A stretch of DNA of 64,000 nucleotides, from sequence record SRR22947725_4056; one strand, given 5' to 3'. Positions 2,921 through 45,129 of this stretch are shown here, in pieces. The position numbers and the translations under genes are program-made. The notes under the pieces were generated by a model. The model ran no database searches. It was not told the DNA's origin and saw nothing but the letters and a program-made list of their open reading frames with translations. Position 1 is the first letter of the stretch. Each line of letters opens with the position of its first letter.

Positions 2921-3994
2921 ATGGTGGGCGAGAGCATTGTGGTGGACACAGCAGCGCCGATTGAGGTTCTGGTTCAACAACTTCTCGATATTCCAAGCCC
3001 CTCCGGATCTGAATCCGCATTAGCCGAAGCAATCGAAAAAGCTCTGAACTCAGCCCCCCACCTGGAAGTACTTCGGGTGGGAAACACGATTGCTGCGCGA
3101 ACCAATACCGGTCGCGAATACCGAGTGGTGTGGGCGGGACACACGGACACTGTCCCCGTGCATCACAACCTGCCCTCCCAGGTTCGGGAGGGCTTTTTGT
3201 GGGGACGCGGCAGCGTTGATATGAAGGGTGGCCTTGGCATAGGGCTCAAGTTGGCATTGGAGCTTGCGGAACCTATCCATGACATGACGTGGATTTTCTA
3301 TGACAACGAAGAAGTCGAAGCGTCTAAGAATGGGCTGGGGTTGTTTGGCACCGCCCACCCGGAGTGGGTATCTGGCGACTTTGCGATTGTGGGAGAGCCG
3401 AGCAACAGTGCTGTGGAGGGCGGATGCAACGGGACTCTTCGCGTGGTGATCACCACCCGGGGCACCCAAGCACATTCGGCCCGGTCGTGGATGGGCGTGA
3501 ACGCCATCCATACTGCTGCCGAGGTGCTATCCCGGCTGGAGCGATACGAGGCTCAAACGGTCATGGTGGACGGTCTTGAGTACCGCGAAGGCTTAAACGC
3601 CGTGGGGATTTCTGGTGGGGTGGCGGGAAACGTGATTCCCGATGTGTGTGAGATTACGGTGAATTATCGTTTCGCCCCTGATAAGTCAGTAGCGCAAGCG
3701 CAAGCGCACGTCGAGGAGGTATTTGAGGGCTTTAACCTGGTGGTGGTTGACTCGTCTGCTGGAGCGAGGCCTGGACTAACCAGTGATTTGGCACGGGGTT
3801 TTGTGGCCACGCTGGGTGTAGAAGTGAGACCCAAATATGGTTGGACGGATGTTGCCAGATTCAGCGAATGGGGTATCCCCGCTGTCAACTTTGGCCCAGG
3901 GGACCCATCGCTTGCCCATTCGGACGACGAACAAGTGTCGATTGGCGATATTCAAGCCGTCTACCGTGCGCTAAAACTCTGGCTAAGCCCATAG
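2921..3994 (+). CDS. dapE: Succinyl-diaminopimelate desuccinylase (M20 family)
   Basis: AGHTDTVP, GRGSVDMKGG, EEVE, HSARSW, GWTDVARF. Start placed at ATG 2921 because of the upstream TACACT. Confidence 0.93.
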   Translation: MVGESIVVDTAAPIEVLVQQLLDIPSPSGSESALAEAIEKALNSAPHLEVLRVGNTIAARTNTGREYRVVWAGHTDTVPVHHNLPSQVREGFLWGRGSVDMKGGLGIGLKLALELAEPIHDMTWIFYDNEEVEASKNGLGLFGTAHPEWVSGDFAIVGEPSNSAVEGGCNGTLRVVITTRGTQAHSARSWMGVNAIHTAAEVLSRLERYEAQTVMVDGLEYREGLNAVGISGGVAGNVIPDVCEITVNYRFAPDKSVAQAQAHVEEVFEGFNLVVVDSSAGARPGLTSDLARGFVATLGVEVRPKYGWTDVARFSEWGIPAVNFGPGDPSLAHSDDEQVSIGDIQAVYRALKLWLSP

Positions 3995-12548: not shown

Positions 12549-12918
12549 GGGGATGATCGGTTTCGACATTACTTGTGTGTCCATAGGGAAGCGGGCCGAG
12601 AATGCAGAGTTATCTCGTAAACGTCCTCTGCAAACTATAGGTGCCAATACAAAGCGCACCGACTTCGCTCTCGCTGCCTAAGCAGCGGACAAGTCCGTCA
12701 GACTGAGAGGGCCTCTGGCTCAGATACTGGCGTCGATTAAGAGGCTTGCTGATGACTCGTGTATCAGGGGTTATCGGGACTTTTTCTGATGCTGGGCCTG
12801 TCGTTCTAGGTGCTTGTGACAAAGAACGGGGCCGAGCAGAACGCTTTCACAAGATACGCCCGTAGAAGACTGTGGTTCGAAGTAGTGGACCCGGGTTCGA
12901 TTCCCGGCATCTCCACCA
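12549..12918 (+). ncRNA. ssrA: tmRNA; tag ORF 12643-12681 encodes (A)NTKRTDFALAA*
   Basis: 5' end GGGGATGATCGGTTTCGAC, 3' T-arm and acceptor CCGGGTTCGATTCCCGGCATCTCCACCA, tag ending FALAA. Lies just after smpB, with TATAGT at 12469-12474 upstream. Confidence 0.96.
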
Positions 12919-34800: not shown

Positions 34801-34873
34801 CGCCCCCAGCAGGATTCGAACCTGCGGCCTTCTGCTCCGGAGGCAGACGCTCTATCCCCTGAGCTATGGGGGC
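34801..34873 (-). tRNA. tRNA-Arg(CCG); CCA not encoded
   Basis: Acceptor stem GCCCCCA/TGGGGGC, anticodon arm TCTGC-CTCCGGA-GCAGA, T-loop GGTTCGAATCC. Divergent from argS. Confidence 0.97.
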
Positions 34874-38111: not shown

Positions 38112-39431
38112 ATGAAAGATAACTATCGTGACCTCCGCGTCGCCGTGCTAGGGGGAGGAACGGTGGGAGCCCAAGTGGCCCACCGACTTCTTGAGGGAGC
38201 GGCCGAACTAGGTTCGCGCTCTGGCGCAGGCCTTTCCCTCATCGGGGTTGCCGTTCGCGATCTCACTGCCGAGCGAAGCGCGCCCCTTCCCGCTGAATTA
38301 CTGACCACCGATGCCCACTCGTTGATTCTCCAAGCCGACATTGTGGTGGAACTCATGGGGGGCATTGAACCGGCCCGCACCCTGATTCTGGAGGCGCTGG
38401 GTTCGGGAGCGGATGTTGTCACAGCGAACAAGGCTCTCCTTGCTGAGCACGGACCGGAGCTGTTTGATGCTGCAGCCCGGGTAGGCGCGCAGCTTTATTA
38501 CGAGGCAGCGGTTGCCGCCGCGATTCCCATCATTCGCCCGCTTCGAGATTCCTTGGCAGGGGACCGTGTGACAAAAATCATGGGCATCGTGAACGGGACG
38601 ACAAACTTTATTTTGGATCACATGGACTCCAAAGGCTTGAGCTTTGATGCAGCCCTCGCCGAGGCCACCGCGCTGGGCTACGCCGAGGCGGATCCGACAG
38701 CAGATATCGAGGGGTTTGATGCCGCCCAGAAAGCGTGCATACTTTCCTCCCTCGCTTTTCATACGGCAGTCCCGCTCGAGGACGTATATCGCGAAGGCAT
38801 CACGGCGGTCAGCGCGGAACAGATAGAGGCAGCAAAGAAATCCGGTCACGTCATCAAGCTGCTGGCAATTTGTGAACGACGCTTCGACGCTGCCACGGGC
38901 CGCGAAGGGGTCAGCACTAGGGTTCACCCCACCTTGATCCCCAGGTCTCATCCCCTTGCTGCCGCTCATGGCGCCAATAACGCGGTCTATGTGGAAGCGG
39001 AAGCAGCCGGCCCTCTAATGTTTTATGGGGCAGGTGCCGGTGGTGCGGAAACGGCATCCGCCGTCTTGGGAGATCTCGTCTCTGCCGCGAGGCGCCACGT
39101 TGCCGGGGGTCCTGGTGTCGGGGAGAGCACGCACGCAGACCTTCCCAGCATTCCTCTGGACCACGTCGCAAGCAGGCTGAATATTAGCTTGGTGGTGAAG
39201 GACCAGCCGGGTGTGTTGGCGGCCATTGCACAGGTATTTAGTGACCACGATGTGTCGGTAGAAACCTTGCATCAAAGTGCCAGTGGCGAAGGGGCGAGTG
39301 GGTCTGAGACCGCTACGCTGGTCATTCAGACTCACAGCGCACTCGAGGCTCGAGGACGGGAAACCGTTGACGCACTCGCTGCAAACCCTGTCGTTGTTGG
39401 AGTCACCAATGTTCTGAGAGTGGAGGGCTAA
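38112..39431 (+). CDS. hom: Homoserine dehydrogenase (with ACT domain)
   Basis: GGGTVG, VTANKA, GIVNGTTN, GYAEADP, GAGAGG, DQPGVLA. Confidence 0.96.
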   Translation: MKDNYRDLRVAVLGGGTVGAQVAHRLLEGAAELGSRSGAGLSLIGVAVRDLTAERSAPLPAELLTTDAHSLILQADIVVELMGGIEPARTLILEALGSGADVVTANKALLAEHGPELFDAAARVGAQLYYEAAVAAAIPIIRPLRDSLAGDRVTKIMGIVNGTTNFILDHMDSKGLSFDAALAEATALGYAEADPTADIEGFDAAQKACILSSLAFHTAVPLEDVYREGITAVSAEQIEAAKKSGHVIKLLAICERRFDAATGREGVSTRVHPTLIPRSHPLAAAHGANNAVYVEAEAAGPLMFYGAGAGGAETASAVLGDLVSAARRHVAGGPGVGESTHADLPSIPLDHVASRLNISLVVKDQPGVLAAIAQVFSDHDVSVETLHQSASGEGASGSETATLVIQTHSALEARGRETVDALAANPVVVGVTNVLRVEG

Positions 39432-39433
39432 TC

Positions 39434-40570
39434 GTGGCTAAGAAAGGGTTTTTTTCTCGCCAGCGGCCCAAAGGACCGAGACACAGCCGGGGTTCTCGGC
39501 AGTGGCGCGGAGTAATCCATGAGTACGCCGATCGGCTGGACGTCAGCAGGGCCACCCCGGTCGTCAGCCTCGGTGAGGGCGGGACACCGCTCATTGAAGC
39601 TCACAACCTTTCGGCCAGAACGGGCGTTCGCGTTCTGATTAAGTTTGAAGGAATGAACCCCACCGGTTCCTTTAAGGACCGCGGGATGACGATGGCAGTC
39701 ACCAAGGCCAAGGAACACGGTGCGAAAGCCGTCATTTGTGCTTCCACCGGAAATACCTCCGCTTCGGCTGCTGCCTATGCCGCCCACGGTGGACTCACTA
39801 GTGCCGTGCTTGTGCCCGATGGCAAAATCTCGATGGGGAAGCTCTCTCAAGCCATCGCTCATAATGCTCACGTTCTGCAGGTCGCTGGTAATTTCGACGA
39901 CTGTTTGGATATTGCAAGAGATTTAGCAGAGAACTATCCGATCCACTTGGTGAACTCGGTAAACAATGACCGGATCGAAGGACAAAAGACCGCGTCGTTT
40001 GAGGTTATTGACGTGTTGGGGAAAGCGCCAGACTTTCACTTCCTGCCGGTAGGGAATGCCGGAAACTACACCGCCTACCACCGGGGCTATAAGGAAGAAG
40101 CCAAACGGGGCGCCACCAACCAGATGCCACGAATGTTTGGATTCCAAGCCCTCGGTTCCGCGCCGTTTGTCACGGGGGAGCGGGTGAAAAACCCCGACAC
40201 GATTGCCACAGCAATCCGGATTGGCAATCCTGCGTCCTGGGACCTCGCTCTTGCGGCCCGCGAAGATAGCAATGGTTACTTCGGAGCGATTGATGACCCG
40301 GGCATTCTTGCCGCCCACCGGTTACTGTCCCAAGAGGAGGGCATTTTTGTGGAGCCCTCCTCCGCCATCAGCGTTGCCGGTTTGATGGAACGCCTTGAAG
40401 CGGGAGCGATTCCCAAGGGCGCAACCGTGGTGCTGACTGTTACCGGGCACGGGCTGAAGGACCCGAGCTGGGCCCTGAAAGATTCTTTGGGTGCTGAGAT
40501 TCAACCCACCAAAGTTCCTATTGATCCAGCCCATATCGCTGAAGTATTGGGATTGGGGGCCGCGAAATGA
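39434..40570 (+). CDS. thrC: Threonine synthase
   Basis: EGGTPL, NPTGSFKDRG, ASTGNT, PVGNAGN, TGHGLKD. Confidence 0.96.
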   Translation: MAKKGFFSRQRPKGPRHSRGSRQWRGVIHEYADRLDVSRATPVVSLGEGGTPLIEAHNLSARTGVRVLIKFEGMNPTGSFKDRGMTMAVTKAKEHGAKAVICASTGNTSASAAAYAAHGGLTSAVLVPDGKISMGKLSQAIAHNAHVLQVAGNFDDCLDIARDLAENYPIHLVNSVNNDRIEGQKTASFEVIDVLGKAPDFHFLPVGNAGNYTAYHRGYKEEAKRGATNQMPRMFGFQALGSAPFVTGERVKNPDTIATAIRIGNPASWDLALAAREDSNGYFGAIDDPGILAAHRLLSQEEGIFVEPSSAISVAGLMERLEAGAIPKGATVVLTVTGHGLKDPSWALKDSLGAEIQPTKVPIDPAHIAEVLGLGAAK

Positions 40571-41511
40571 GTGCACCTATCGCTCTTGGACGGAGTGTGA
40601 GCGTTCGGGTACCGGCCACCACCGCGAATCTTGGCCCGGGTTTTGACACGCTCGGCATGGCCCTCACGATTGAGGACACCTTGCAGGCCACCGTTCGTGA
40701 AGGCTCGGGGGTCCATGTGAGCGTTCATGGCGTGGGAGAAGGCGAAGTTCCCACGGATGAAACCAACCTCATCGCCCGATCGATGGCTCACGCCTTTGCT
40801 TCAAAAAACATCGACATGCCGGGAATTGATCTGATTGCCACTAACGTCATTCCGCACGGGCGAGGCCTCGGTTCCTCCGGCGCAGCCATCGTCTCTGGTG
40901 TGATGGCTGCGAAGGGTTTGCTCGAAGGGATAGTGGAGTTCACCCCCGAAGAGCTGCTCGCCTTGGCAACAGACATGGAAGGCCACCCGGACAATATTGC
41001 GCCCTCCCTTTTTGGCGGGCTCACGATTGCCTGGATGAGAGATGACGGCCCCAAGCACAAGAAGCTCAGCGTGCATCGCGGAGTGTCCTTGGTGGTTGCC
41101 GTTCCCGAAGATGCCAGCATGTCGACCCAGTTGGCGAGAAGCTTGCAGCCAGAAACTGTCCCCCACCAAGATGCGATTTTCAACCTTTCTCGGTCTGCAT
41201 TGCTGATTGCGGCCCTGATTCAAAGCCCCGAGCTGTTGTTCGAGGCCACCGAGGATCGTCTGCACCAGGACTACCGAGCTAGCGCGATGAAGGACACCGA
41301 TGCTTTGCTTCAAAGCCTGCGTAGCGCAGGGTTTGCTGCTGTGGTCTCAGGGGCAGGCCCCTCGGTGCTGATTTTGTGCTCCGACCCCGCCCAGCGACTT
41401 GAGGTACAAAAAGTAGTGGATGCTCATCAGGGAGGCGTATGGTCGAGCCATATGCTGACCGTCGATGAGCGGGGTGCTACAGTAGAAGAGCTTCCGGCGC
41501 TCGCGGACTGA
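40567..41511 (+). CDS. thrB: Homoserine kinase
   Basis: PATTANLGPGFD, GHMP motif PHGRGLGSSG, EGHPDN, SGAGPS. Confidence 0.96.
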   Translation: MSAPIALGRSVSVRVPATTANLGPGFDTLGMALTIEDTLQATVREGSGVHVSVHGVGEGEVPTDETNLIARSMAHAFASKNIDMPGIDLIATNVIPHGRGLGSSGAAIVSGVMAAKGLLEGIVEFTPEELLALATDMEGHPDNIAPSLFGGLTIAWMRDDGPKHKKLSVHRGVSLVVAVPEDASMSTQLARSLQPETVPHQDAIFNLSRSALLIAALIQSPELLFEATEDRLHQDYRASAMKDTDALLQSLRSAGFAAVVSGAGPSVLILCSDPAQRLEVQKVVDAHQGGVWSSHMLTVDERGATVEELPALAD

Positions 41512-41532
41512 CCCCAGTTAGCGCTCCGGATT

Positions 41533-41662
41533 ACCTCATCACCACACCGCCTCGTTTTTAAAAAGGCGTGAGGGTCACTCGTGACAGAGGAGCCGCAGGC
41601 TCCTTCAGCCCCCACTGTGGTGAGGAAGAGGTTGACAGCATTTCGATCGCCACATTCGTGGC
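41533..41662 (+). promoter_or_regulatory. Structured rho 5' leader (multi-stem junction)
   Basis: Outer stem TCACCACA/TGTGGTGA encloses three hairpins. A GCCAC/GTGGC hairpin follows, before the AAGGAG SD. Confidence 0.45.
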
Positions 41663-41680
41663 AGACAATAAGGAGAGACC

Positions 41681-43183
41681 ATGGAACAAGAGAGTTCTTC
41701 AACCCCCAGTACCAGTGATTCAAGTGAATCCACCCCCACTCGCAAGCGCGCCCCCCGCCGCGTGAGCTCGGCAACCACCGAGATCACCGCGCCGGCAGAA
41801 AAGGACAAACCTAGCGAGCCTAAGCCCGCCGAGGAGAGTGAGCGCCCCAAGCGTCGCCGCTCCAGCGCTCCCGCGAAAACCGAAGCCGCAGAGGCCACCG
41901 GGTCCGAGGGTTCCGACAGCAACGACTCCAGTGATGACGGCGCCGAGGCAGGCGGAGCACGCAGCCGGAACAGCGGCAACTCCCGCGGTCGCGGTCGCGA
42001 CCGTCGTCGTGGACGCGGCAGTTTCGGCGAAGAGGGTGAACCCGAAGTCTCCGATGATGACGTGTTGATTCCCATCGGGGGCATTCTGGATGTTCTCGAT
42101 AACTACGCTTTCGTTCGCACCCAGGGTTACTTGCCTGGACCCACCGACGTTTATGTGTCTTTGGGACAGGTCAAGAAATACAACCTGCGCAAGGGCGACG
42201 CCGTGATCGGCGCCATTCGTCAGCCCCGTGACGGTGAACACCAGGGTCGGCAGAAATACAACGCTCTGGTGAGCGTGGACACTGTCAATGGACAAAGCGT
42301 TGACGAAGCCGGTGCGCGCTCAGAGTTCTCTGCTCTTCGTGCGGTGTATCCCACGGAGCAGTTGCGGATGGAAACCTCTGCCGATGTCCTCGGCACCCGG
42401 ATGGTGGACCTCTTTGCCCCTGTGGCAAAGGGTCAACGTGCTGTCATCGTGGGAGCAACGAAGACGGGAAAGTCTGACCTGGTTCAGGCAATGGCTCAGG
42501 CCGTTGCCCAGAACGCGCCGGATGCTCACCTCATGGTCGTCCTTATCGATGAGCAGCCAGAGACAATCTCTGACGTTCAGCGCGATGCGAAGGGCGAAGT
42601 AATTGCCTCCAGCTTTGACCGCTCGGTGGATGATCACACCACCATCGCCGAACTTGCCATTGAGCGAGCTAAGCGATTGGTGGAATTGGGACACGACGTT
42701 GTTGTGGTGATGGATTCTTTGACCCGCCTCGCTCGCGCCTACCAGTTGGGATTGGGTGGCGGTTCGCGCACCGGAGCGATGGACACCGCGTGGGTGTATC
42801 CGACCAAGAAATTGTTTGGTGCTGCGCGCAACATTGAAGGTGGCGGTTCGCTCACGATGCTTGCGACGCTGGTGACAGAAACTGGTCTTGCCATGGATGA
42901 CGTCGTTGCAAGCGAAATTTCTGCTGCCGCGACCATGGAGTTGACCCTGGACGCCCATGCCGCTGGGGCGCGGGTTTTCCCAGCGATGAATATCGCTCGC
43001 TCCGGCACCAGAAAAGAAGAAGCCATCCTCGGCAAAGACGAGGTCGCTGCGCTCGCCGTGATCCGTCAGAAATTGGCGGGCCATTCCGCGCTCGAGGGGT
43101 TGCAGGCCGTGGTGAAAACACTGTCTTCGAGCTCTTCGAACGTCGAGGCACTGGTTTCCTTGCAGAAGAACCTCGGTAGCTAG
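41681..43183 (+). CDS. rho: Transcription termination factor Rho with a degenerate motor domain
   Basis: Conserved OB-fold (YAFVRTQGYLPGPTDVYVS), KRLVELGHDVV, FGAARNIE, SGTRKEE. thrB-rho-prfA synteny. Confidence 0.9.
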   Translation: MEQESSSTPSTSDSSESTPTRKRAPRRVSSATTEITAPAEKDKPSEPKPAEESERPKRRRSSAPAKTEAAEATGSEGSDSNDSSDDGAEAGGARSRNSGNSRGRGRDRRRGRGSFGEEGEPEVSDDDVLIPIGGILDVLDNYAFVRTQGYLPGPTDVYVSLGQVKKYNLRKGDAVIGAIRQPRDGEHQGRQKYNALVSVDTVNGQSVDEAGARSEFSALRAVYPTEQLRMETSADVLGTRMVDLFAPVAKGQRAVIVGATKTGKSDLVQAMAQAVAQNAPDAHLMVVLIDEQPETISDVQRDAKGEVIASSFDRSVDDHTTIAELAIERAKRLVELGHDVVVVMDSLTRLARAYQLGLGGGSRTGAMDTAWVYPTKKLFGAARNIEGGGSLTMLATLVTETGLAMDDVVASEISAAATMELTLDAHAAGARVFPAMNIARSGTRKEEAILGKDEVAALAVIRQKLAGHSALEGLQAVVKTLSSSSSNVEALVSLQKNLGS

Positions 43184-43189
43184 GGCACC

Positions 43190-44266
43190 ATGTTTGATTC
43201 TGTTGACGCGTTGATAGCGGAGCACGCTGAGCTTCAAGTGAAGCTGGGCGATCCCGCTGTCCACGCCGATGCAGGGTTATCCAAAAAGCTGAACCGGCGC
43301 TTCGCCCAGCTCTCCAAGATCATCGCAGCCCATGACCGCATGGTTGCACTGACCGATGACCTGGCTGCGGCTCAAGAGATGGCCAGTGAAGATGAGTCGA
43401 TGGCTGCCGAAGTGCCTGTTTTGGAAGCTGGTCTTGCAGAGGCCACCGAATCTCTTCGGTCCTTGTTGATTCCTCGGGACCCCGATGACGGGCGCGATGT
43501 CATCATGGAAATTAAGGGCGGGGAAGGTGGCGAAGAAAGCGCTTTGTTTGCTGCTGACTTGTTGCGGATGTATCTGCACTATGCGGAGTCTCGTGGCTGG
43601 AAAACAGAAGTGCTCGATAAGACCGAAAGCGACATGGGTGGTTTCAAAAACGTCCAGGTTGCCATCAAGAGCAATGCGAGCGACCCTGCAGAAGGCGTAT
43701 GGGCGAGCATGAAATATGAAGGTGGCGTCCACCGCGTGCAACGCGTTCCCGTCACCGAGTCACAGGGCAGAATCCACACCTCAACCACAGGGGTGCTCGT
43801 TTTTCCCGAGGTCGATGAACCCGAAGAGTTGGATATCAGTACAAACGATCTCAAGATTGACGTTTTCCGGTCCTCTGGCCCCGGCGGTCAGTCGGTTAAC
43901 ACCACTGACTCCGCCGTGCGGATCACCCACCTCCCCACGGGCATTGTCGTCTCGATGCAAAACGAGAAGAGCCAGATTCAAAACCGTGAGGCGGGAATGC
44001 GGGTGCTGCGCGCACGAATCCTGGCGCGACAGCAGGAAGAACTCGCCGCTGTCCAGTCCGATGCCAGGAAGAGCCAGATTCGTGGGATGGACCGATCCGA
44101 GAGAATTCGCACGTATAACTTCCCCGAGAACCGGATCGCTGATCACCGCACCGGGTATAAGTCTTACAATCTCGATCAGGTGATCAATGGGGCACTAGAG
44201 CCCGTGATTCGGTCCTGCATTGAGGCCGATGAAGCGGAGCGTCTCGCTGCCTTGAATCCCGAGTAA
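43190..44266 (+). CDS. prfA: Peptide chain release factor 1
   Basis: GEGGEE, PVT anticodon motif (RVPVTE), [12 protein letters not shown]. Confidence 0.97.
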
Positions 44267-45129
44267 TGCAACTTCTGGCAGCCCTCAAAGACGCCACGGA
44301 GCGCTTAACGCGCTCTGGAGTTGCCTCTCCCCAGGTTGATGCCGAACTACTCCTCGCTCACGTGACGGGTGTGTCTAGGGGTGAAGTGCTGGCATGGGTG
44401 CACACGGACAGAAGCCTCACCGCTGACCAGGTAGTGGACTGGGACAGGCTCCTGGCAAGACGGGAGAAAAGAGAGCCTCTCCAACACCTGACGGGCACGG
44501 CGGCCTTCATGTCTTTTGAAGTGAGTGTGGGGCCCGGTGTCTTTGTTCCCCGCCCCGAGACCCAAGCTCTTGTGGAAGCGGCAATCGACCAAGCGCTTGC
44601 GATGGGAGTGGGGGAGGAGGGTTTGAGAATTCTTGATCTCTGCTCCGGTTCCGGTGTGGTTGCCATTTCGCTGGCCCGGGCCATCCCTCACGCCAACGTG
44701 AGTGCTGTGGAAGCATCGCCTGAAGCCCTGGCATACCTCGAGAAGAACGTCGAGAACCTAGCCCCCAATATTCGTGTGGTGGCCTTGAGCGTTGCCGAGT
44801 GTGCCGAGGAATTTGGTGGTTCAGCCTTTGACATGATTCTTGCCAACCCGCCCTATGTCCCGGTCTCTGAAGTGCCCAATGATCCCGAGGTCGCCACCTA
44901 CGACCCGGCGATGGCGCTGTTCGGGGGAGCAGATGGTCTCGATGTTGTCCATCACATTCAAGCTCTGGCGAATTCCCACCTCAGACCTGGTGGCTATCTT
45001 GCGATCGAGCATTCAAATCTTCAGGGCGACGCCGTCCGCGCAATTATGAACTCAGCCGGCATGAGAAGTGTTTCCACCGAGAAAGACTTTGCGGAGCGAG
45101 AACGGTTCACCCACGGTTTTCGTCCCTAA
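44266..45129 (+). CDS. prmC: Release factor glutamine methyltransferase
   Basis: REPLQHL, VFVPRPET, DLCSGSG, NPPY. Confidence 0.95.
   Translation: MQLLAALKDATERLTRSGVASPQVDAELLLAHVTGVSRGEVLAWVHTDRSLTADQVVDWDRLLARREKREPLQHLTGTAAFMSFEVSVGPGVFVPRPETQALVEAAIDQALAMGVGEEGLRILDLCSGSGVVAISLARAIPHANVSAVEASPEALAYLEKNVENLAPNIRVVALSVAECAEEFGGSAFDMILANPPYVPVSEVPNDPEVATYDPAMALFGGADGLDVVHHIQALANSHLRPGGYLAIEHSNLQGDAVRAIMNSAGMRSVSTEKDFAERERFTHGFRP

Follow-up and report, generated by a model that had tools for sequence, protein, structure and literature searches.

We analyzed the rho gene in a 64,000-nucleotide stretch of DNA from sequence record SRR22947725_4056 (hereafter, the window). It encodes a Rho protein in which the elements that couple ATP to RNA differ from those of canonical relatives. 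The gene is the single rho of a Pontimonas, a small marine actinobacterium of the Microbacteriaceae and member of a genus whose type species is described as cultured and fully sequenced; the Rho of the nearest genome is 99% identical. Within the gene order hom-thrC-thrB-rho-prfA-prmC (Table 1), rho lies uninterrupted between thrB and prfA, as described in an initial annotation made from the letters alone. Its 500 codons form the longest possible frame, the ATG being the first start codon past the upstream stop. The initial annotation had further proposed that the protein combines an intact RNA-binding domain with a degenerate motor, and that it may bind RNA and oligomerize without translocating.

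The fold of the protein is that of Rho. The NCBIfam Rho model NF006886 scores 388.1 bits, above its cut-off of 315. Among solved structures, M. tuberculosis Rho matches best (7oqh; E 4e-125), ahead of the Rho proteins of T. maritima and E. coli; identity to E. coli Rho is 41%. An AlphaFold2 model of residues 120-500, built from 45 sequences, reached a mean predicted local distance difference test score of 89.4 and a predicted template modeling (TM) score of 0.88, with low confidence confined to one OB-fold loop and to Q-loop residues 361-366. Compared with solved protomers, the model gave TM-scores of 0.89 to 7oqh and 0.87 to closed-ring E. coli Rho (3ice); the top Foldseek matches were all Rho (TM 0.82-0.89, query-normalized). 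We also considered and rejected an identity as the short-form paralog Rho2, since the score of 378.8 bits against its model NF041509 lies far under the cut-off of 628 and no second rho was found in the Pontimonas genomes searched.

The RNA-binding part is canonical, as had been proposed. At E. coli positions 62, 64, 66, 78, 80, 108 and 110, which we take to be residues of the primary RNA site, the OB fold carries the same residues as canonical Actinomycetales. It is preceded by a low-complexity region dominated by few amino acids (S 24, E 17, R 17, A 13 and G 12 of 125 residues). The N-terminal helix bundle (Rho_N, PF07498) gave no Pfam match in the window Rho or in any of the six other Pontimonas Rho proteins scanned, and it is likewise absent from four relatives with canonical motors. 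The unusual N terminus noted in the initial annotation is thus borne out, but it is a known feature of the "type 2d" Rho class (e.g., Microbacterium oleivorans), defined by the lack of an N-terminal domain and by more than 25 extra disordered amino acids before the RNA-binding domain (Moreira et al., 2024, PMC11347177). The window Rho, which has 125 residues ahead of its OB fold and lacks Rho_N, belongs to this class. The class is architectural only, however, and the type 2d-like proteins at loci L049, L051, L052 and L056 have canonical motor motifs.

Table 1. Coordinates of rho, its domains and motifs, and the neighboring genes in the window (residues with one-letter codes and changes in E. 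coli numbering, except R363 and R444)
Feature	Coordinates	Strand	Details
rho open reading frame, 500 amino acids	41681..43183	+	ATG start, TAG stop; single rho of this genome type
N-terminal low-complexity S/E/R/A/G region, residues 1-125	41681..42055	+	In place of the N-terminal helix bundle; no Rho_N match
OB-fold primary RNA-binding domain, residues 126-207	42056..42301	+	PF07497 Rho_RNA_bind at residues 134-207, E 1.6e-25
RecA-type ATPase (motor) domain, residues 208-500, remodeled	42302..43180	+	PF00006 ATP-synt_ab at residues 238-441, E 1.3e-21
Walker A / P-loop GATKTGKS	42452-42475	+	G183, K184 kept; T185S
DEQPETI (opposite DERPEEV)	42548-42568	+	D210 and catalytic E211 kept; Arg valve R212Q, E215T
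Walker B strand VVVVMDS	42698..42718	+	D265, S266 kept
Q-loop region QLGLGGGSRTGAMD	42743-42784	+	2 residues shorter, Gly/Ser-rich, one Arg (R363)
R-loop TGLAMD (opposite TGSKMD; TGSTGD in M. tuberculosis)	42881-42898	+	T323, G324 kept; S325L, K326A
ASEISAAATME replacing YEEFKGTGNME	42908-42940	+	E334 kept; E333, K336, G337, T338, G339, N340 changed
SGTRKEE with Arg finger R366 (R444)	43001-43021	+	R366 kept
thrB-rho spacer / putative rho leader, 169 nucleotides	41512..41680	+	No significant fold, no Rfam match
hom	38112-39431		
thrC	39434-40570		
thrB	40567-41511		
prfA	43190-44266		
prmC	44266-45129		

The departures lie in the motor. Residue equivalences were taken from HMMER alignments to M. 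tuberculosis Rho (7oqh), T. maritima Rho (3l0o) and an 8q3q chain ("bacterial Rho"), in which all motifs align ungapped to the canonical ones save for a two-residue gap in the Q-loop; aligning the annotated rho of E. coli K-12 with MAFFT gave identical equivalences. In E. coli numbering, used throughout, E211, R212, K326 and R366 correspond to window residues E291, Q292, A404 and R444. Translation yields exactly the motif strings reported initially, and the changes listed there in the P-loop, DEQPETI, the Q-loop, the R-loop and ASEISAAATME are all confirmed, as is the retention of the Walker A Lys, catalytic Glu, Walker B Asp and arginine finger. The nucleotide pocket is kept (G183, K184, S185, D210, E211, D265-S266, R269, R353, F355 and R366). 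The Q-loop, described as about two residues shorter and rewritten, is indeed so, but it has not been emptied: P279, V284 and L285 are gone, while one Arg and one Thr remain, aligned with K283 and T286.

As checks on its proposal, the initial annotation had named an alignment to Rho from E. coli, M. tuberculosis and other Microbacteriaceae, a search for a second rho and per-domain substitution rates, and we carried out all three. We searched 25 Pontimonas genomes (0.9-1.8 Mb), all of which contain a rho match, and compared the loci from 23 of them together with the window (24 sequences, two ending at contig ends), leaving out G020, where only a fragment remains at the end of a contig, and G006, an assembly that is 59% complete. 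The canonical set comprised 19 Actinomycetales sequences (7 belonging to other families, 12 to other Microbacteriaceae genera); at the positions described next they invariably carry the E. coli-like residue, apart from Arg at position 283. The alignment showed that the derived state is common to the whole genus. The Arg valve R212, present in 19/19 canonical relatives, is Q in 12, N in 9 and H in 3 Pontimonas sequences and R in none. E215 is replaced by T (13) or A (11), and K326 by A (15), S (5), Q (3) or E (1). The Rho of the cultured type species is of the DENPETV / SGTSRD subtype. V284 and L285 are deleted in 24/24, leaving a Q-loop 2-3 residues shorter, and position 279 is never P. E333 and K336 are kept in 0/24, and G339 and N340 are A and T in every sequence. 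R212, E215, the Q-loop, K326 and E333-N340, the elements by which E. coli Rho couples its ATP site to RNA in the ring channel, are replaced throughout the genus by a different, selectively maintained set.

Other positions are constant. G183, K184, D210, E211, D265, S266, R269, Y274, G324, E334 and R353 are kept in 24/24 sequences and F355 in 23/24; T185S, N275Q, A293W, F300L, G339A and N340T are derived residues fixed in all 24. The Q-loop has been rewritten into Gly, Ser, Thr and Gln, yet it contains exactly one Arg in each of the 24 sequences. To place these changes on a common scale, we took the 161 reference positions invariant in the 19 canonical sequences and E. coli. All 14 in the OB fold are kept in the window, and none of them is changed throughout the 24 sequences. 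The motor has 147 such positions; the window Rho departs from the canonical residue at 53, and every one of the 24 sequences does so at 26. By our own count, 20 of these 26 fall within or next to the P-loop, E211 dyad, Q-loop and R-loop segment.

The same state recurs in a wider protein collection, in which we compared the best 120 of 7996 matches. R212 is missing in 68 of these 120, which represent separate 90%-identity clusters (DEHPEA in 30, DEQPEA in 24, DEQPET in 11 and DENPET in 3). All 68 keep K184-S185, D265 and exactly one Q-loop Arg or Lys, and none has K or R at position 326. The other 52 show DERPEE, TGSK and a full-length loop, and no intermediates between the derived and the canonical state occur among these best 120 of 7996. 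The named derived-state proteins are annotated in their source databases simply as Rho.

Several of the changes touch the bicyclomycin pocket. Of the 11 pocket positions named by Moreira et al. (2024, PMC11347177), four differ in the window Rho (R212Q, G337A, P180T and L320V), and positions 180, 181, 320 and 337 differ among Pontimonas subclades. The insensitivity to bicyclomycin raised as a possibility in the initial annotation is plausible because 4/11 pocket positions differ, and on this comparison of residues Pontimonas Rho is probably insensitive to the drug.

In the genomes searched, namely the one with the 99% identical Rho and its relatives, no second rho was found. With a protein query, one rho was found in each of the 25 Pontimonas genomes, including the one whose Rho is 99% identical to that of the window, although the gene was cut or split in three assemblies. 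The only other match, at most one weak hit per genome (E 1e-5 to 1e-6), is apparently an ATP synthase subunit. A Rho family model likewise gave one match over its cut-off, and no second rho, in each of five Pontimonas genomes, two of which are 98-99% complete in 1-3 contigs. Of the 23 loci taken, 21 are full-length and have an uninterrupted frame, among them the locus of a single-contig, 99%-complete genome. In the 59%-complete assembly G006 (locus L136, G006:C5:68800-71600), rho shifts to the +1 frame at the OB-motor junction, around locus positions 1375-1383; either an error in sequencing or a genuine split could account for it.

We then compared how the domains evolve. Ratios of nonsynonymous to synonymous substitution rates (dN/dS) were calculated by the Nei-Gojobori method on closest pairs (13 Pontimonas pairs, whole-gene dS 0.13-0.92). 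The per-domain values reveal strong purifying selection on the motor (0.000-0.054) and on the OB domain (0.000-0.031); the N-terminal region gave 0.08-0.25. Three pairs of canonical small-genome relatives span a similar range for the motor (0.016-0.054). Between the window and its 99% identical relative the ratio is 0.14, a value that derives from just three nonsynonymous and seven synonymous changes.

Taking PrfA, the product of the adjacent gene, as a clock for the motor and OB distances, the motor/PrfA distance is 2.18 within Pontimonas (231 pairs) versus 0.49 and 0.42 among canonical relatives (66 and 36 pairs), and the OB/PrfA distance is 0.65 versus 1.03 and 0.83 for the same pairs. Pontimonas motor domains differ at a median of 36% of sites (231 pairs). 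Column entropy distributes this divergence unevenly: the Pontimonas OB fold is nearly frozen (0-0.2 bits at positions 48-117), positions 178-197, 278-297, 318-347 and 358-419 are several-fold above canonical relatives, and motor positions 238-277 remain conserved. A motor tree, from a quick search with support only from the Shimodaira-Hasegawa-like approximate likelihood ratio test (SH-aLRT), gives Pontimonas a stem of 0.37 substitutions per site with inner stems of 0.13-0.63 and tips of at most 0.2, most below 0.06; canonical branches are all at most 0.14.

Altogether, the proposal is supported in part: the coupling elements are indeed non-canonical, but the description of the motor as degenerate is not borne out as worded. 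The low motor dN/dS (0.00-0.05), the pocket kept in 24/24 sequences, the Q-loop Arg kept in 24/24 sequences and matched by a single Arg or Lys in 68/68 derived matches, and the six fixed derived residues suggest a remodeled, still working ATPase domain; the evidence points to a motor that is selectively maintained rather than decayed.

Elsewhere in the family, Rho genes have gone further. We drew 201 Microbacteriaceae genomes from 101 genera and found one rho-like gene in 200 of them (E 1e-40 or better; in two pieces in 2); the single genome lacking a match is 90% complete. Motifs were inspected in 30 genomes chosen non-randomly (best and worst scorers, small genomes), of which 13 are canonical, 5 show milder departures (L054, L057, L059-L061) and 12, from six genera with single-copy rho, are strongly eroded (L062-L073). 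These eroded genes have other residues in place of the Walker A Lys and/or D210-E211; several lack the C-terminal third, which carries the Arg finger, and a stop codon is present in four of the matches. The OB domain is nonetheless recognized by Pfam in 7/7 eroded proteins scanned (E 1e-19 to 1e-26), and in these genera dN/dS is 0.06-0.19 for the OB domain versus 0.21-0.62 for the motor remnant. The eroded proteins resemble those of Pontimonas in family, locus type and the pairing of a conserved OB domain with a diverging motor, but they lose the Walker A Lys and/or D210-E211 and/or the C-terminal third, whereas among catalytic residues Pontimonas loses only the Arg valve and its Rho is under tight constraint. 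In a PrfA tree (a single gene, quick search), Pontimonas forms one clade (SH-aLRT 97) and the eroded genera require no fewer than three independent origins, on branches with good support. A 0.9-Mb genome encodes the most eroded Rho (L072). Small genome size alone does not explain the pattern, as four genera with genomes of 1.2-1.8 Mb have canonical motors. Among the milder cases, L059 and L060 keep DERPEE and a full-length Q-loop but have Leu at the Arg finger position (STLRE / STLHE) and Arg at 326, an independent departure.

Known Rho proteins place the window Rho more precisely. It shares with E. coli Rho (3ice, 1pv4) the two-domain fold, the P-loop Lys, D210-E211, D265, R269, R353, R366 and the primary-site residues, and differs by the missing helix bundle, by R212Q, E215T, K326A and N340T, and by its Q-loop being two residues shorter. 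M. tuberculosis Rho, the best solved relative, is actinobacterial too; its OB fold follows a hydrophilic region rich in Arg, Gly and Asp, and the R-loop Lys is missing. It is described as a motor that truly depends on ATP and resists bicyclomycin, although it is weak and of poor processivity (D'Heygere et al., 2015; Saridakis et al., 2022). The initial annotation held that it would be refuted if the same substitutions were common in functionally validated Rho proteins, and this precedent is partial. For K326 it exists, as M. tuberculosis Rho has Thr501 in its place and nevertheless works as an ATP-dependent motor, with low processivity (PMC4499133). It does not extend to the Arg valve, DERPEEV, the full-length Q-loop (SGRILSGGVD) and EEFKGTGN, all of which M. 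tuberculosis Rho keeps and Pontimonas changes; the residues of an allosteric network that joins the ATP pocket to the Q- and R-loops are all conserved there too (PMC8828861). In the literature found, including the available portions of Moreira et al. (2024), we met no natural Rho variant lacking the Arg valve or having a degenerate motor, although the supplement of that study (Table S9) may list some substitutions, and nothing on Rho or termination in Pontimonas. According to the same study, functional Rho proteins have a highly conserved ATPase domain, and only 2/464 Actinomycetota lack a functional Rho (PMC11347177).

The putative rho leader has no significant fold (z -0.95 for 41512-41770) and no Rfam family match. 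The sole Rfam matches in the window are a tmRNA gene at 12549-12918 (+ strand, 162 bits) and one tRNA gene at 34801-34873 (- strand). Metatranscriptome contigs from four runs of four studies match parts of rho at 95% identity or more, a weak hint of expression, as DNA can occur in such libraries and contigs cannot show a transcript. Contigs of four runs end within 16 bases of one another at 41743-41758, 62-77 nucleotides into the reading frame, and in two runs contig depth is higher over the leader (41563-41754) than downstream. Strain variation in the low-complexity region could produce such a pattern, as could attenuation of the transcript at its 5' side; contigs cannot discriminate between the two.

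We also asked whether intrinsic terminators might compensate for an altered Rho. Scans of 54 kb of the window returned 30, 22 and 30 candidates versus 19.6±4.0, 19.3±4.5 and 16.2±4.3 expected. A re-implemented scan of 60 kb of the window gave observed/expected ratios of 1.33-1.65. In 60 kb from a 1.4-Mb relative whose Rho is canonical they were 0.90-1.73, and in a relative with 72% GC, where counts were 0-7, they were 0-2.15. There is no clear difference between the window and the two relatives scanned. The best terminator-like site in the window, at 3172-3193 (+ strand), is a strong hairpin of 8 base pairs, 7 being G-C, that precedes TTTTTG.

The reading that we lean toward, with a confidence only a little above even, is that Pontimonas has a functional sole Rho with an intact ATP pocket and a rewired ATP-to-RNA coupling, probably a weak and bicyclomycin-insensitive motor. 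Such a protein would retain the ring and catch C-rich RNA through its OB domains, aided by the basic, disordered N-terminal region. It would still bind and hydrolyze ATP, and would use the single Q-loop Arg, as a minimal secondary site, to grip RNA in the channel and move it. Because its coupling to RNA would have been rebuilt around so minimal a site, the motor is predicted to be slow, short-range and poorly processive, acting near its loading site or on RNA polymerase-bound complexes. Pontimonas Rho could thus represent a further step along the line of M. tuberculosis Rho. NusG was detected in four of the five Pontimonas genomes searched, the fifth being 94% complete.

Several points weigh against a working motor. 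The Pontimonas motor evolves about 4-5 times faster than canonical ones relative to PrfA, which fits a partly relaxed constraint, and the dN/dS scale is itself noisy, as two high-GC canonical pairs with low dS gave motor values of 0.16 and 0.21. The NCBIfam Rho equivalog model TIGR00767 scores 424.8 bits, under its cut-off of 509.45. Position 366 is Arg in only 14/24 Pontimonas sequences, the window included, although in 9 of the remaining 10 residue 367 is Arg; among the derived matches, 12/68 lack Arg at 366. E211 and R212 are placed to polarize the catalytic Mg2+ and water in E. coli Rho, and R212 is called highly conserved across divergent Rho factors (PMC8828861), so its loss may abolish hydrolysis. 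K326A lowers the ATPase of E. coli Rho by ~75% (PMC4499133). E. coli P279S/L and N340S are defective in secondary RNA binding and termination, N340S being rescued by high ATP and NusG (PMC1950744).

A rival reading is the pseudo-translocase of the initial annotation, a Rho that binds RNA through its OB fold and disordered N terminus, binds ATP and oligomerizes but does not productively hydrolyze or translocate. We would then expect it to serve as an RNA-binding clamp or scaffold, or to terminate only while bound to polymerase, without translocation. The Arg valve and K326 are lost in all 24 sequences and the Q-loop is shortened. P279 and N340, where E. coli substitutions impair secondary RNA binding, are changed in all of them, and the Arg finger position is non-Arg in 10. 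Moreover, conservation of the OB fold exceeds that seen in canonical relatives even as the motor diverges, and related genera select the OB domain beside dead or truncated motors, implying an OB-centered function in the family. We nevertheless judge this reading unlikely, though worth taking seriously. The catalytic Glu and the examined pocket residues are kept in 24/24 sequences despite the median motor divergence of 36%, and these are exactly the residues that the eroded genera lose. The motor dN/dS is as low as in canonical small-genome relatives, and a single basic residue persists in the Q-loop throughout the genus and the 68 derived matches. A dead pseudo-translocase is possible, but less likely than a working remodeled protein.

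The remodeling could instead have been driven by an inhibitor, such as a bicyclomycin-like compound or a phage or plasmid protein, with motor performance a secondary casualty or compensated, a scenario compatible with a functional, rewired Rho. The changed bicyclomycin-pocket positions and their variation between subclades would fit, as would G337S being a known bicyclomycin-resistance change in E. coli (PMC11347177). The long inner branches (0.25-0.63) and short tips of the motor tree can be read as change in bursts. However, gene-wide dN/dS gives no sign of positive selection, and many of the changed positions lie in RNA-contacting loops outside the drug pocket, so that we consider an inhibitor an improbable driver. 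A dispensable Rho undergoing neutral drift, or metagenome-assembly errors, would accord with the faster-evolving motor, with rho lying in two adjacent frames in 1/25 Pontimonas genomes and with the truncated or stop-interrupted genes of other genera, but deserves almost no credence given the open frame in 21 full-length loci from separate genomes, the derived state in 68 separate 90%-identity clusters, the lack of a second rho in the genomes searched, and the motor dN/dS of 0.00-0.05, by which neutral decay is rejected.

Viewed across the family, single-copy Microbacteriaceae Rho may form a series from proteins that are canonical, in the genera whose motifs were inspected, through the rewired but tightly constrained Pontimonas form to ATPase-dead or truncated motors in at least three lineages, with selection on the OB fold persisting from end to end. 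Tentatively, and with considerable doubt, this series may mean that what is selected in the family is the OB head of Rho, perhaps together with RNA polymerase, NusG or the disordered tail, instead of processive translocation. In that case Pontimonas Rho would be an enzyme uncoupled by nature, in which ATP turnover gates ring closure or clamping instead of tracking, and if this is true, it would be a natural test case for the debated translocation-independent (allosteric) mode of Rho termination.

Published surveys call the catalytic and RNA-coupling residues of Rho conserved across bacteria, and here a whole genus departs from them. The eroded genes further suggest that the presence of rho in genome surveys overstates canonical Rho-dependent termination. 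Pontimonas Rho offers a bicyclomycin pocket predicted to be insensitive, may allow ATP binding and hydrolysis to be told apart from RNA coupling in a natural, testable form, and bears directly on the dispute between tracking and allosteric models of Rho-dependent termination.

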